Assembly: GCA_000004985.1 (NCBI GenBank)
Contig: GG739171.1
From: Naegleria gruberi
Lineage: Eukaryota
Length of the DNA stretch: 4,849 nucleotides
Strand: one strand, 5' to 3'
How positions within the stretch are numbered: the first letter of the stretch is position 1; each line of letters begins with the position of its first letter. Positions 1-4,849 of the stretch are shown one piece after another. A program made the translations under genes and the position numbers. The notes under the pieces are model-generated. The model was not told where the DNA came from. It searched no databases and was given only the letters and a program-made list of their open reading frames with translations.

Positions 1-98
1 CATGAAAATTCTGGTTCTATTGCAAGTAAGATTAAATTTGATAGTGATGGAAAGAATCCTAGAGTTAGACTTGAGGAATTATTGGAAGCTTGGACTAT

Positions 99-716
99 TT
101 AATTTTGAATATTTGATTTTACACTCAAATATTTCCTTAAAAGCAATTCTGGATAACCACAAGTTAAAACCTGAGCATCCTGAGATGAGAGTGGTAGATC
201 CTTTTCAACTAGTTGCTTATCAATTTTTTTAAACTTTTTCTCTCCCTCAATATTTACTGATTTAAAATAAAGAGTTTCGTTCACATCCTCAAATTTCAAT
301 GAAAAGAAAGCAATCTCATAATTTCTATAATTTCTTCTAATTTTACAAGTTTTAGCTGAGACAACCCTGTGATGATTTGAACTGAGTGCCAGATCCGAAA
401 CTTGATTCATCTTTAATTGGTTCTCTATACTCTTGAGTAGATTATCCTGATCAGATAAATCAACCTTCTCTGAAAAACAGTGAATTTTCTTCCATTTTTC
501 AATGCCAGATTTCTTTCTCTTTTTACGAATTTTAATTTCAAATTGTGACATGTAAGCAAGTTTAATTCCAATAGTTTCGGGAATAACACTATTTCCCTCC
601 TTATCCACAACAATTAAATACACATCATTTTTCTCTTCCATTTTTTGATATTCAGTAAAGTTGTGATGAAACTCTTCGGAAGTGAGTGGTTTAAATCTTC
701 TAAATTCAAATCCCAT
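99..716 (-). CDS. Hypothetical protein, 205 aa, charged and lysine-rich with an NLS-like basic patch (KIRKKRKKSG); no family recognised
   Basis: Uninterrupted ORF. ATG at 714..716 (reverse strand) is preceded in the sense orientation by A9. TAA stop at 99..101 (reverse strand). It is the longest ORF in the 5' 700 nt. Two other ORFs overlap this span (2..232 plus strand, 425..613 minus strand) and are shorter and hydrophobic/low-complexity. A faint resemblance of residues ~12-45 to the N-terminus of SRP14 (L.SE.F...T......VYI..K) is too weak to call. Confidence 0.5.
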   Translation of the reverse strand: MGFEFRRFKPLTSEEFHHNFTEYQKMEEKNDVYLIVVDKEGNSVIPETIGIKLAYMSQFEIKIRKKRKKSGIEKWKKIHCFSEKVDLSDQDNLLKSIENQLKMNQVSDLALSSNHHRVVSAKTCKIRRNYRNYEIAFFSLKFEDVNETLYFKSVNIEGEKKFKKIDKQLVEKDLPLSSQDAQVLTCGYPELLLRKYLSVKSNIQN

Positions 717-1092
717 TTTTTTTTCAAAATTGATTCTATTAATAAATATTATATTATTGTATTAAATTAGTTCACTGTGAATTAATCATAATTGAGCATG
801 ATGAGTATTAAGAAGTATTTCCACCAGCTTCAATTATTCCTATTGAGGCTTCTAAATTACTGTAAAATTGTCAAATTTCCCAACCACGAAAAATTTCCAT
901 GGAAATTTTACAAGTCCGAGAAGATCCAATCAAAAAGTTTTTAACGGCCAACCACCGTTTTTACAATAGTAAACTTGCATTTCTGACGTGGCCGGGAGCT
1001 TTTTTTTGAGAGATCTTGTTGCGGTCACCACCTGTCTCCAAAGACACCACATTCCATTACATTGATATTTCCATAGTACATTTGTGCCTTCA
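717..1092. promoter_or_regulatory. Divergent intergenic region between the minus-strand ORF (start at 716) and the plus-strand ORF start (1093); presumed bidirectional promoter
   Basis: The two flanking ORFs are oriented head-to-head. T9 run at 717..725 abuts the minus-strand ATG. A single GC-rich island at 983..999 contains TGACGTGGC (984..992; ACGT-core, CRE/ABRE-like) and is followed by a T8 run (1000..1007). AAAATTGA lies at 726..733. No function can be assigned from sequence alone. Confidence 0.3.
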
Positions 1093-1160
1093 ATGATCAA
1101 GTTGAATTTTTCACACACCCTTGTGAATTTCCACATATTCATTCTTCTTTCAATATATTA
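1093..1160 (+). CDS. 5' end of an ORF encoding a signal-peptide-like N-terminus (MIKLNFSHTLVNFHIFILLSIY...), truncated by the assembly gap; possibly exon 1 of the downstream alpha2-delta-like gene
   Basis: The first ATG in this frame is at 1093. The ORF track began the ORF at GTG 1084, which is a prokaryote-style start. A short polar n-region is followed by a hydrophobic h-region, as expected for a secreted or type-I membrane protein. It has the same strand and orientation as the alpha2-delta-like exons beyond the gap. Reading frame continuity across the gap cannot be assessed. Confidence 0.35.
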
Positions 1161-2686: not shown

Positions 2687-2796
2687 CAACTGGTGATGAT
2701 GGAATTCAAAAATATACTCCTAGAACAGCAGTTAGTATTGCTGAAGTTAGAGATTTAAGATGTGCTCTCCAAGATCTGAGATTTACTTATAGAGAT
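2687..2796 (+). CDS. Internal exon fragment (frame 1) of the alpha2-delta-like gene; 5' boundary lost in the gap
   Basis: Open frame from the gap edge (…TGDDGIQKYTPRTAVSIAEVRDLRCALQDLRFTYRD). It ends exactly at a consensus 5' splice site GTAAGT (2797..2802) in phase 0. Splicing to 2837 continues the frame-2 ORF whose product aligns with the VWA_N region of alpha2-delta. Confidence 0.5.
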
Positions 2797-2836
2797 GTAA
2801 GTTTTATCAAACACCCTAATAACCTTTTTTTATAAG
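2797..2836 (+). other. Spliceosomal intron, 40 nt (GTAAGT ... CTAAT branch-like ... T-tract ... AAG)
   Basis: GTAAGT at 2797..2802. CTAAT (CTRAY-type branch consensus) at 2816..2820, 15 nt upstream of the AG at 2835..2836. T7 tract at 2825..2831. Removing it joins frame 1 (ending 2796) to frame 2 (starting 2837) in phase 0. A second in-frame AG acceptor lies at 2847..2848, which would give a 52-nt intron. Confidence 0.5.
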
Positions 2837-4135
2837 GCTAAATATAAGGTTGACGACACTATCAGCCAAATTTATGTTGCTGGTGAATATGCTCCAATGA
2901 TAAACACCTATCCTGGATTGAATTGGAGATTTAATAAGTCACAATCATCATCAATTTGTCTTGAAAATGATGCATTCACCACTGCAACTTCTTGCTACTC
3001 TGGGTTCGAATACAGAAATAGACCATGGTTTATTTCAGCATCTTATGTATCCAAAAATATTTTTCTGATAATAGATTATTCGTCTGTAGTAATGAGAAGT
3101 AGTAATGGATATTCCAGAACAGTATCGGCCTTAAACAGCTTATTGAACTCCTTAAACGAGAGGGATAAGATAGCTGCTGTTCTTTTTACCAAGAAGGCAA
3201 TTATTTATCCAGGAAATGAAAAAACAGGCTTCCTGTTCGCAACTGACGCAACAAAATCAAGTCTACTTGATTGGATTTTGTCGCTCTTTGTTCAAACCTC
3301 TTCCACAACCAATTCCGGATCCTATCATACAGCTGCCTTTGAGACATCATTTGCGTTCCTTAAGCAATACTCAAGCTCATTGATTAATTGTGATACCTCA
3401 CTTGTTGTGTTTGGAGATGCTGACAATATCAAGGACGAATCAAATCCAGTCAACAGCTTACTTACTCAATATCAGTCACTATCGAATTATTTGGGTACTA
3501 GTTTTGTAAAGAAAGTTAGAGTATTTTCGTTCTCAGTTGGCATTCAAAAAGGGCAAGCTAACCCATTGAAATCCTATCCATGTCTAACAGGTGGGCTGTG
3601 GATACCACTGGATCCCTCTGACGCTTCCACAGAGCAAAGTTCTGATGTAAGAGGATTAATGAGTCCATTTTTTAGTTTTCATTCCTACAGAAGACTTGGA
3701 AAGAATGATATTATTTGGTCTAATTTCTATTCCGACTTGTTGGGAATTGGTAATATGACTACAGCATCCCTTCCTTGCTATTCTTCTGGTGGCATGTTTT
3801 TGGGTGTTGTTGGTGTGGATGTTCCAGCTACCTTATTCAACACAACCACATACCCTGATGCACATTCAGAATTCTCTAGGAGAAAAGTGTTATCAGATGG
3901 TGTTGGCTACTGTCCAGATGTAGATATTCAAGACTCATTCGTTGATGACCTTAGAGGAGGAGCTTGCAATTATTGCAACCAACCTTGTGGTAATCTTGCT
4001 GTAATGTTGGGGTTCATACCTGCTGTATTGGTTGCCTTTGTTGTTTTCGTGATTGTTTCGTTCTACTTTTACAAGAGGTCACTTATGAAGGCGGAAGGGG
4101 ATGACGAAAAAGAAGAAAAAGCCCTTGTAAAATAA
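2837..4135 (+). CDS. Terminal exon of an alpha2-delta-like protein. It carries the end of VWA_N, a VWA domain with a degenerate MIDAS, the start of a Cache-like domain, a Cys-rich stalk, one C-terminal TM helix and a short charged tail. The ORF-track version starts at Met 2897.
   Basis: Motif-level similarity to voltage-gated Ca-channel alpha2-delta subunits as I recall them. RNRPWF (3014..3031) corresponds to [17 protein letters not shown] (3059..3091) sits at the DxSxS MIDAS position (DVSGS in alpha2-delta-1). [11 protein letters not shown] (3509..3541) corresponds to [33 protein letters not shown] corresponds to [30 protein letters not shown] corresponds to LGVMGVDV. The hydrophobic stretch [26 protein letters not shown] (3995..4072) is followed by [20 protein letters not shown] and TAA TAA (4133..4138). 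The frame is open back to 2801, and 2837 is the proposed splice acceptor. Confidence 0.8.
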   Translation, partial: [432 protein letters not shown]

Positions 4136-4139
4136 TAAA
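4133..4139 (+). terminator. Tandem stop TAATAA overlapping a canonical AATAAA polyadenylation hexamer (4134..4139)
   Basis: Sequence gta aaa TAA TAA aaa ATG. AATAAA is read from 4134. The predicted cleavage zone 10-30 nt downstream falls inside the next ORF. Confidence 0.4.
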
Positions 4140-4141
4140 AA

Positions 4142-4849
4142 ATGTTAGAAGTTGAATTTAGCCATTCCGTTGTTTGTTTGACCAATGAAGAAATAATAGA
4201 AAACTCATTTGATAAACCAATACACACCCAACTAGGAAATGGGCAATTAAAGTTTTTAGATATGGAAGAAAAACTTAGTGTGATGAATCCAGGAGAAACA
4301 TGTGAGATTTTAACATTAGGAGAGGATCTTGTTAAATATAAAATTTCCATCAAACTATTACGAAAATATTCGAGTGATGGCAATGCTACGGAATGGGATT
4401 ATTCAGATGAAGAGAGCTACAATCTAGCTCTAAACAAAAAAGAAGATGGCAACTTATTCTTCTCTCAAAATAAGAATATTTCAGCTTCCAGATGTTATCG
4501 AAGCGGAATTAAACATGTGAGAAGGATCTCCAAATTGAAATGGGATTTAAATAATAGAAAGGCTAGGGATTTGTTGATCACTCTGTTCAATAATCTACTC
4601 ACATGTGAGTTAAAACTTAAAAGATACTCGAATGTTGTAAAGTTTAGTACTGAATGTCTTGATAATATCGGAGAAAATGTTAAAAGTTATTACAAAAGAG
4701 GTGAGGCAAATATGAATGATGGAAATTATTCTTTGGCTAATGAAGATTTCAGAAAAGCTAAAGAGCTGCTACTCACAGTTGATTCAAATGCTGAAATTTC
4801 TGTAATCAGTAAGGTTATTACAGGCTCTCCTAAGACTATGCAGCAGATA
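4142..4849 (+). CDS. FKBP-like (probably non-catalytic) + TPR co-chaperone-type protein, AIP/AIPL1/TTC9-like; 3' end truncated by the window edge (236 codons, no stop)
   Basis: ATG at 4142 is the first codon after the in-frame stops. The frame is open to the last base of the window. The C-terminal half matches the FKBP52/AIP-type TPR pattern. NVKSYYKRGEANMNDGNYSLANEDFRKAKELL corresponds to [31 protein letters not shown]. The preceding LFNNLLTCELKLKRYSNVVKFSTECL corresponds to [25 protein letters not shown]. The N-terminal ~85 aa (KPIHTQLGNGQLKFLDMEEKLSVMNPGETCEIL) resembles the distal half of an FKBP fold ([32 protein letters not shown] in AIP). Confidence 0.7.
   Translation, partial: MLEVEFSHSVVCLTNEEIIENSFDKPIHTQLGNGQLKFLDMEEKLSVMNPGETCEILTLGEDLVKYKISIKLLRKYSSDGNATEWDYSDEESYNLALNKKEDGNLFFSQNKNISASRCYRSGIKHVRRISKLKWDLNNRKARDLLITLFNNLLTCELKLKRYSNVVKFSTECLDNIGENVKSYYKRGEANMNDGNYSLANEDFRKAKELLLTVDSNAEISVISKVITGSPKTMQQI

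Follow-up and report, generated by a model that had tools for sequence, protein, structure and literature searches.

In very compact genomes, such as those of microsporidia, nucleomorphs and Giardia, transcription units overlap. For Naegleria gruberi, nanopore direct RNA sequencing identified AAUAAA as the top poly(A) signal, located ∼15–20 nt before the cleavage site, with UGUA enriched upstream and U-rich sequence downstream of the signals (PMC11529991). Some 11–13% of the stop codons in this species overlap AAUAAA ("dual-use" stops), and the median 3' UTR measures 39 nt overall and 22 nt for AAUAAA dual-use stops (PMC11529991). As to gene order, Heterolobosea have ∼2 genes per directon, and both long directons and a polycistronic signature are absent (bioRxiv 10.64898/2026.07.29.740908).

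The window analysed here, 4849 bp in length, covers all of an N. gruberi scaffold. It contains a gap of 1526 N (1161–2686), and the junction between two same-strand genes lies within the 2163 bp of contiguous sequence that make up the right-hand contig (Table 1). The 3' end of the upstream ORF reads ...GCC CTT GTA AAA TAA, with the stop at 4133–4135 and a second in-frame TAA directly after it (4136–4138). A TAA after a TAA is nothing special at ∼30% GC. The hexamer AATAAA at 4134–4139 overlaps the stop and is the sole plus-strand copy in the right-hand contig. After a spacer of 6 nt (TAAAAA, 4136–4141) follows the ATG of the downstream ORF (4142–4144), in one frame with the upstream ORF (4142 − 2897 = 1245 = 3 × 415). 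The preliminary description had given these coordinates, the second stop, the hexamer overlap, the spacer and the shared frame correctly, as direct inspection of the sequence confirmed. The left part of the window (1–1160) had no homology to the N. fowleri, N. lovaniensis and Willaertia neighbourhoods, and an exact-protein look-up of a 205-aa minus-strand ORF yielded no record.

Table 1. Features of the two-gene junction and its surroundings, in window coordinates
Feature	Coordinates	Strand	Remarks
Exon 1 (last 110 nt) of the alpha2-delta-like VWA/Cache gene	2687..2796	+	Remainder of exon 1 falls in the N gap 1161–2686
Intron, 40 nt, phase 0, GT..AG, T-rich acceptor cctttttttataag	2797..2836	+	Shift from frame 1 to frame 2 joins conserved ORF pieces
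Exon 2, NAEGRDRAFT_54870 (VWA, Cache/PDC-like region, C-terminal TM helix, short charged tail)	2837..4135	+	Stop TAA 4133–4135
Presumed promoter and transcription start of the downstream gene	4040..4141	+	Inference only; within the last ∼30 codons of the upstream gene
TGTA, possible upstream auxiliary poly(A) element	4126..4129	+	Read from sequence; a 4-mer easily occurs by chance
Multi-purpose 12-nt junction TAATAAAAAATG	4133..4144	+	Stop, back-up stop, AATAAA, A-run start context, start codon
AIP/FKBP38-like immunophilin (FKBP-like domain and TPR), first 236 codons, unannotated	4142..4849	+	Cut by the scaffold end, ∼60 codons missing
Predicted cleavage/polyadenylation zone of the upstream mRNA	4150..4160	+	From hexamer distance and 22-nt median; corresponds to codons 3–7 of the downstream gene
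TTGTTTGTTTG, possible downstream U/GU-rich element	4170..4180	+	Read from sequence; a motif this short is expected by chance in AT-rich DNA

The upstream gene comprises two exons. The translation of its first exon, ending in TGDDGIQKYTPRTAVSIAEVRDLRCALQDLRFTYRD, corresponds to the end of exon 1 in the orthologue from a Naegleria-like species of an ENA metagenome (hereafter ENA species; L002 up to 554) and to N. fowleri L003 6361–6477, and the ENA orthologue is interrupted at the corresponding position by an intron of 33 nt (L002 555–587). The existing gene model NAEGRDRAFT_54870 is 5'-truncated. The exon 2 product is 100% identical to N. gruberi XP_002668267.1 and 62–63% identical to the orthologues of N. 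fowleri and the ENA species, with which its C-terminus shares the end position in the alignment. A reading of TAA as a sense codon that would fuse both ORFs was rejected on account of this shared end and of 432 codons free of in-frame TAA or TAG. When compared with the PDB, the family profile matched only Cav alpha2delta-1 chains (E = 3e-10, residues 235–492); MCP-like PDC_1 was matched in two of three members of the family, and the single-sequence Pfam match to VWA stayed under the cutoff. At the C-terminus, a 25-residue hydrophobic stretch precedes the charged tail. Judged by its sequence, the protein combines VWA, Cache/PDC and a C-terminal membrane anchor, and is in this sense alpha2-delta-like.

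The downstream ORF is 49–57% identical to orthologues of N. lovaniensis, N. fowleri, the ENA species and Willaertia. A protein search with it returned no N. gruberi protein among its matches, no other N. gruberi copy was found, and the gene set of this species is thus without its AIP/FKBP38-like immunophilin. An AF2 model of moderate confidence (overall pLDDT 62; 70–80 in the FKBP-like fold) predicts a beta/alpha/beta arrangement at residues 2–77, whose first beta-strand begins at residue 2, followed by helices. The best Foldseek matches of the model were 7zub_C (XAP2; 4.4e-9), 2if4 and 5mgx, i.e. XAP2/AIP, FKBP42 and FKBP38. Pfam did not detect the FKBP-like domain in this ORF; TPR_1/TPR_2 were matched in all five immunophilin family members, and PPIase_AIP is on record for the orthologues. 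As modelled, the gene has the N-terminal FKBP-like fold plus TPR that define the AIP/XAP2, FKBP38 and FKBP42 type. The two labels assigned beforehand, alpha2-delta-like and FKBP/TPR, are hence backed by the exclusive profile match to Cav alpha2delta-1 in the first case and the best Foldseek match to XAP2/AIP in the second.

In the alignment, the ATG at 4142 is the sole in-frame ATG between the stops and the residues that are conserved in every orthologue (from about residue 4 onwards). It is preceded by AAAAA; in related species the same holds for 20 of 42 annotated starts, and 27 of the 42 have at least four A's. The downstream ORF is without the variable N-terminal leader of 17–50 residues found in all four orthologues; an additional upstream exon was considered for this gene and rejected, the Naegleria orthologues being single-exon. 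Sequence comparison indicates that both ORFs are genuine genes with authentic ends and orthologues in other Naegleria and in Willaertia.

We consider it likely that the locus is a genuine, lineage-specific head-to-tail pair of unrelated genes, each conserved independently of the other, giving rise to two monocistronic mRNAs with overlapping ends, a transcript structure that we infer from the following observations. The upstream gene has a dual-use stop: the poly(A) hexamer of the species overlaps its stop codon, in one of the five registers for such overlap (TAA 4133–4135 with AATAAA 4134–4139; cf. PMC11529991). Employing this UAAUAAA as stop and poly(A) signal, the upstream mRNA would probably be cleaved ∼15–25 nt further on, within the first few downstream codons. 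Cleavage is predicted inside the downstream CDS because an ultrashort 3' UTR exceeds the spacer, the ATG lying 6 nt past the stop. That the upstream 3' end forms inside the downstream CDS had been proposed before and would fit the published hexamer distance and 22-nt 3' UTRs (PMC11529991).

The immunophilin, in turn, would probably have a compact promoter within the final codons of the upstream gene, since transcription has to start before 4142, where only upstream CDS lies. Its leader would be very short and A-rich, ending in the genus-typical AAAAA-ATG. When the sequences preceding the immunophilin ATG were compared across five species, no conserved promoter motif emerged; an 8-mer (TTGTAAAA) that also occurs in the ENA species does not exceed chance expectation. 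Across N. fowleri, N. lovaniensis and the ENA species, CDS-to-CDS gaps amount to 25, 37, 47, 72, 74, 81... nt for tandem, 3, 3, 4, 6 and 13 nt for convergent, and 33 and 60 nt for divergent pairs; the VWA gene of the ENA species, for instance, is followed by a different same-strand gene after 25 nt. With gaps this small, promoters and 3' ends should routinely lie inside neighbouring genes, and for promoters this follows from the divergent pairs, which are never co-transcribed and sit 33–60 nt apart. The earlier objection that there is no room for an independent promoter therefore holds for the spacer itself, yet not beyond it. Within the junction, the individual elements are statistically unremarkable (AATAAA occurs four times in the window against eight expected, i.e. 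without enrichment), and the 6-nt head-to-tail spacing is the unusual part. It falls below all 15 tandem spacers sampled (minimum 25 nt) and is an outlier even for the genus, the sample being drawn from related species (N. fowleri, N. lovaniensis, the ENA species, Willaertia). Fully overlapping transcripts, which the preliminary description had entertained as a fallback, are the reading we favour, tight packing being usual in the genus.

The gene order in relatives points to a lineage-specific origin of this arrangement. None of the three other species in which both could be examined (N. fowleri, N. lovaniensis and the ENA species) has the two genes side by side. On one N. fowleri contig, the VWA gene lies nine genes (∼14 kb) away from the AIP-like gene and on the opposite strand, a linkage whose chance for two random genes is ∼0.15% if ∼12,000 genes are assumed. 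In N. lovaniensis and the ENA species, each of the two genes has other neighbours. Upstream of the immunophilin, the three species have either a Ras-like gene in divergent orientation or, at a distance of 129 nt, an unrelated gene, and the immunophilin is therefore independent of the upstream ORF. The neighbourhood is conserved, with a block order that differs by an inversion between N. fowleri and N. lovaniensis. A protein search with the actin-related neighbour, run for further N. gruberi sequence, returned no N. gruberi protein. The juxtaposition probably arose through a lineage-specific local rearrangement: a single inversion of the block between both N. fowleri genes would reproduce the order seen in the window, and the same event may also have deleted the variable leader of the immunophilin. 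Under such an inversion, the missing sequence downstream would hold a convergent actin-related gene and, after it, a longin gene.

The missing leader is also the starting point for the best-surviving alternative, in which the juxtaposition is real and the downstream ORF is a 5'-truncated breakpoint copy with little or no expression, so that no transcription from inside the upstream gene would be needed. Without the leader present in all four orthologues, the gene might indeed be impaired, and the FKBP-like domain escapes Pfam and the gene lies outside the N. gruberi gene set. However, the ORF stays open over 236 codons at ∼31% GC, keeps all strongly conserved motifs (e.g. LLITLFNNLLTCE.KLKR) along with its overall similarity to the orthologues, and has a canonical start context. 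What it lacks is the non-conserved, low-complexity portion, the FKBP-like fold being predicted at pLDDT 70–80 from residue 2 onwards, and the protein search revealed no other N. gruberi copy. We therefore regard a defunct copy as unlikely.

A further possibility is one bicistronic mRNA, on which ribosomes would reach the downstream ORF across the 6-nt UAAAAA by termination-reinitiation or internal entry. The short stop-to-start distance and the A-rich, unstructured spacer would suit such a mechanism, and a dual-use poly(A) site, if weak, would leave read-through transcripts. On the other hand, folding analysis of the junction predicted no structured element (z = −0.15), and an Rfam search of the window gave no match. 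Reinitiation downstream of an ORF this long (>430 codons) works inefficiently in eukaryotes unless dedicated elements assist it, which counts further against this explanation, as does the independence of the immunophilin from the upstream ORF in the other species. Translation from a shared mRNA is thus very unlikely. The same slim chance applies to the corollary that N. gruberi, whose genes are otherwise conventional and monocistronic, makes a true bicistronic transcript of this pair, on which TAATAAAAAATG would link production or translation of the second cistron to 3' processing or termination of the first, by reinitiation or via a 5' end made by cleavage.

Slightly fainter still is the prospect that the junction was created in assembly or cloning and that the genes are not truly adjacent. 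The scaffold is a very small, gapped Sanger scaffold, its downstream gene lacks annotation and runs off the end, and the neighbourhoods of both genes are unlike those in other species. Besides, scans of JGI metagenomes gave no independent copy of the junction: an exact 33-mer spanning it had no match, and a profile scan for immunophilin relatives found nothing. A random join, however, would have to hit a 6-nt interval that spares both ORFs, flanked by a conserved C-terminus and a canonical AAAAA-ATG start, and the presence of both genes in one chromosomal neighbourhood of N. fowleri would be unexpected for a random chimera.

Least probable of all is the explanation that the preliminary description had preferred, namely an operon-like polycistronic unit whose downstream cistron is freed by spliced-leader (SL) trans-splicing at an AG in 4111–4121: the same-strand 6-nt spacer with AATAAA at the boundary and the position of Naegleria as sister lineage of the trans-splicing Euglenozoa speak for it, yet SL trans-splicing has been described as uniting Euglenozoa, with Naegleria as an outgroup (PMC7052976), the pair lies apart in N. 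fowleri, N. lovaniensis and the ENA species, and instead of co-directional clusters the sampled N. fowleri genes form 10 directons for 19 genes, in keeping with the ∼2 genes per directon of Heterolobosea at large. Nor do the three AG dinucleotides at the end of the upstream CDS (4111–4112, 4114–4115 and 4120–4121) resemble trans-splice acceptors, a role that had been suggested for them. They sit in a purine-rich run (GAAAAAGAAGAAAAAG / GACGAAAAAGAAGAAAAAG) that is missing a pyrimidine tract; cis-intron acceptors, by contrast, are pyrimidine-rich (window, cctttttttataAG; ENA orthologue L002, ctcattgtttcAG), and start contexts in the genus are A-runs, not a Y-tract plus AG. To our knowledge, SL trans-splicing has never been reported in Heterolobosea.

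If two overlapping mRNAs are indeed produced, the locus would represent a clean extreme of gene packing in a free-living eukaryote, in which the 3' end of one gene falls within the next gene, whose promoter sits within the first, and a 12-nt string serves five roles. As such, it could be a compact system in which to test transcriptional interference and to define minimal Naegleria promoters. It raises no new operon or trans-splicing question.

With respect to known systems, the SL operons of nematodes, Oikopleura and rotifers and the polycistrons of kinetoplastids resemble this locus in their same-strand genes, near-zero spacers and poly(A) signal at the boundary. They differ in that the N. 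gruberi pair is unconserved, has no pyrimidine tract with AG, and is not part of directional clusters, in a group for which we know of no SL system. Closer parallels are the overlapping units of microsporidia, nucleomorphs and Giardia, where, as would be the case here, spacers are shorter than UTRs, and mRNA ends and promoters lie inside neighbours. Unlike these organisms, N. gruberi is free-living and has a moderately compact genome of 41 Mb and normal transcription factors, for which reason its junction is to be seen as a local extreme rather than a genome-wide regime. The dual-use stop/poly(A) signals of Giardia, Spironucleus and N. gruberi itself (PMC11529991) share with this junction the overlap of AAUAAA with the stop, in the UAAUAAA register; what sets this case apart from other dual-use stops is that even an ultrashort 3' UTR is too long for the spacer, so that cleavage is predicted within the neighbour's CDS. 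The N. gruberi pair is thus most likely an extreme but ordinary instance of a known compact-genome arrangement.

Re-reading of the sequence confirmed the junction between the VWA and immunophilin genes and bore out all factual statements of the preliminary description: on the + strand (...GCC CTT GTA AAA TAA TAA AAA ATG TTA GAA...), merely six nucleotides (TAAAAA) separate the upstream stop from the downstream ATG, the stops are in tandem and overlapped by AATAAA, and both ORFs occupy one frame (4142-2897 = 1245 = 3 x 415). With about 30-40% GC, the window is AT-rich, and it contains a run of 1526 Ns (1161-2686); in the 2163-bp contig right of this gap, the AATAAA at 4134 is the sole + strand copy. 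No RNA structure was predicted at the junction (z = -0.15), no Rfam family matched the window, and metagenome scans returned no independent copy of the junction. At the left end of the window, a + strand frame-1 ORF entering from the scaffold start (…RVRLEELLEAWTI*) terminates at TAA 100-102, and a minus-strand 205-aa ORF (99..716; AAAAAAAAA-ATG start context), with no Pfam match and no homologue in the comparison loci, terminates at 99-101. Should both be genes, they would form a convergent pair whose stop codons overlap by 2 nt.

Features of the VWA gene and of its junction with the immunophilin gene
Feature	Position	Strand	Basis or remark
VWA exon 1, last 110 nt	2687-2796	+	exon mostly lost in N gap
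VWA intron, 40 nt, GT..AG	2797-2836	+	position matches 33-nt intron of L002
VWA exon 2	2837-4135	+	L002 comparison
Stop TAA of VWA gene	4133-4135	+	read from sequence
AATAAA	4134-4139	+	read from sequence
Second in-frame TAA	4136-4138	+	read from sequence
ATG of immunophilin gene	4142-4144	+	read from sequence

The VWA ORF is 100% identical to XP_002668267.1 ('predicted protein [Naegleria gruberi]', NAEGRDRAFT_54870), and its gene structure was derived by comparison with the orthologue L002 of the ENA metagenome assembly. The deposited model (347 aa) begins at an internal Met (MRSSNGY…). Since conserved coding sequence reaches 5' past the intron into the N gap (2687-3091 region), this model lacks its 5' part, roughly 200 residues by comparison with N. 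fowleri (553 aa). In the PDB, a family profile of three Naegleria-type sequences matched nothing but alpha2delta-1 chains of voltage-gated calcium channels (E about 3e-10, from VWA into first Cache region); besides, two of the three members matched a PDC/Cache-type Pfam model, and a C-terminal hydrophobic helix precedes a short Lys/Glu tail. The label 'alpha2-delta-like' is therefore fair. In the alignment, the tail terminates at an equal position in N. gruberi (...EKEEKALVK*), N. fowleri (...EKEENNRPQSISAKK*) and the ENA species (...EKEELTKK*); the VWA stop is authentic. The N. fowleri VWA locus (L003) has, at 6361-6656, sequence homologous to a segment of the window's VWA gene that the annotated product (P0003, 553 aa) lacks; the gene model there may thus be mis-spliced.

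The downstream ORF (236 codons) shares 49-57% identity with N. lovaniensis, N. fowleri, ENA species and Willaertia magna proteins, orthologues to which annotation or scoring assigns an AIP-type PPIase plus TPR. From a small alignment of these, AlphaFold (moderate overall pLDDT of 62, 70-80 over residues 1-80) predicts an FKBP-like beta/alpha/beta unit in residues 1-80, with the first strand from residue 2, and the top PDB matches of the model (Foldseek) were XAP2/AIP, FKBP42 and FKBP38. Annotation, model and matches thus agree with the earlier FKBP/TPR label. The ORF lacks the extra 17-50 N-terminal residues of its orthologues, which are poorly conserved and of low complexity, and Met1 aligns to the conserved Gly of the first-strand motif GDxVxFHY. 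With conserved residues almost directly after and two stops before it, ATG 4142 is the only available start, barring an intron; Naegleria orthologues are single-exon. Among 42 annotated starts from N. fowleri, N. lovaniensis, the ENA species and Willaertia, position -3 was A in 36, and positions -5 to -1 held at least four As in 27 and five in 20; the AAAAA preceding ATG 4142 is hence a typical context for the group. Owing to this strong A-run, AATAAA often arises within start contexts (e.g. N. fowleri L003 7966-7975 and L005 12445-12454), where it could also act as poly(A) signal of an upstream tandem gene. No N. gruberi protein was found among the immunophilin homologues, the scaffold-truncated window copy (4142-4849) being the only one seen, and the published gene set seems to lack the gene. 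As protein search likewise returned no N. gruberi orthologue of the actin-related neighbour gene, assembly of this part of the chromosome may be poor.

According to a nanopore direct-RNA study including N. gruberi (PMC11529991), the leading poly(A) hexamer of this organism is AAUAAA, typically about 15-20 nt 5' of the cleavage site, with UGUA enriched upstream and U-rich sequence downstream; the median 3' UTR measures 39 nt, and 22 nt at the 11-13% of stop codons that AAUAAA overlaps ('dual-use'). By these distances, the upstream mRNA of the window would be cleaved at roughly 4150-4160, within codons 3-7 of the immunophilin ORF. The window also has TGTA (4126-4129) and TTGTTTGTTTG (4170-4180), yet motifs so short prove little. 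The proposed formation of the upstream 3' end within the downstream CDS is reasonable and agrees with the dual-use stops documented for this organism. Most likely, and as the simplest model, the locus yields two monocistronic mRNAs overlapping by a few tens of nucleotides, with immunophilin transcription starting, in this model, in the last VWA codons.

The VWA/immunophilin adjacency is not conserved in N. fowleri, N. lovaniensis or the ENA species. In N. fowleri, a Syf1-like gene follows the VWA gene after 143 nt, and the immunophilin gene, on the opposite strand of the same contig, is nine genes and about 14 kb distant; its flanking genes are a Ras-like one (divergent, 139-157 nt) and an actin-related one (convergent, 6 nt). 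N. lovaniensis has these immunophilin flanks too, at 60 nt and 3 nt. In the ENA species, an unrelated same-strand small membrane protein gene follows the VWA gene after just 25 nt, and a further, different gene lies 129 nt before the immunophilin gene. Three species keep the block immunophilin -> <- actin-related -> longin, and the immunophilin 5' flank is different in each species compared. The N. fowleri Ras-like/immunophilin/actin-related/HAT-repeat region occurs, with identical tblastx scores, on two GCA_008403515.1 contigs (L004, VFQX01000038.1; L005, VFQX01000037.1), probably as a haplotig or redundant contig. The longin/synaptobrevin-type gene at L005 9328-9921 (minus strand, tblastx) is uncalled in the N. 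fowleri record and has conserved counterparts in N. lovaniensis (L006 12325-13095) and the ENA species (L001 3559-3885).

CDS-to-CDS gaps in related genomes were 3, 3, 4, 6 and 13 nt for convergent, 25, 37, 47 nt and longer for tandem, and 33, 60 nt and longer for divergent genes. Being below the shortest tandem spacer among 15 sampled pairs, the 6-nt spacer makes this locus an outlier within a continuum. Divergent genes cannot be transcribed together, which means that these genomes must make do with very short promoters and leaders, regularly overlapping adjacent coding sequence. Thus, while the spacer itself is indeed too short for a promoter, it does not follow that the pair is polycistronic. 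The initial interpretation is thus partly supported, in the 3'-end overlap and in what had been the fallback reading, overlapping transcripts.

We know of no report of SL trans-splicing from Heterolobosea. The SL trans-spliced operon initially preferred is not supported: the pair is not conserved, and directons in Heterolobosea are reported to hold about 2 genes, with none of great length (preprint 10.64898/2026.07.29.740908), in agreement with the mixed orientation in N. fowleri (10 directons among 19 consecutive genes). Furthermore, SL trans-splicing is described as a character uniting Euglenozoa, with Naegleria as outgroup (PMC7052976), and the AGs suggested as acceptors near 4108..4120 (4111-12, 4114-15, 4120-21) lie within GACGAAAAAGAAGAAAAAG; this lacks the pyrimidine tract of the cis acceptors in the window (cctttttttataAG) and L002 (ctcattgtttcAG). 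A bicistronic mRNA with reinitiation at the junction has a low probability, as does a silent, truncated immunophilin copy downstream of the VWA gene.

The common N. fowleri neighbourhood of the two genes, together with an inversion difference already present in this region between N. fowleri and N. lovaniensis, points to a lineage-specific local rearrangement as the likely cause of the juxtaposition. Starting from the N. fowleri order, a single inversion of the block between both genes would bring the immunophilin ATG directly after the VWA stop, and the same breakpoint may have cost the gene its variable N-terminal leader. An assembly artefact is improbable: a chimeric clone would require a random join within a 6-nt interval that spared both genes, which moreover share a neighbourhood in N. 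fowleri.

The UAAUAAA of the window corresponds to one of the five dual-use stop codon registers of N. gruberi (PMC11529991), and the overlap proposed for two monocistronic mRNAs is comparable to the overlapping transcription units of compact protist genomes. The locus is a new, extreme case of these known features.
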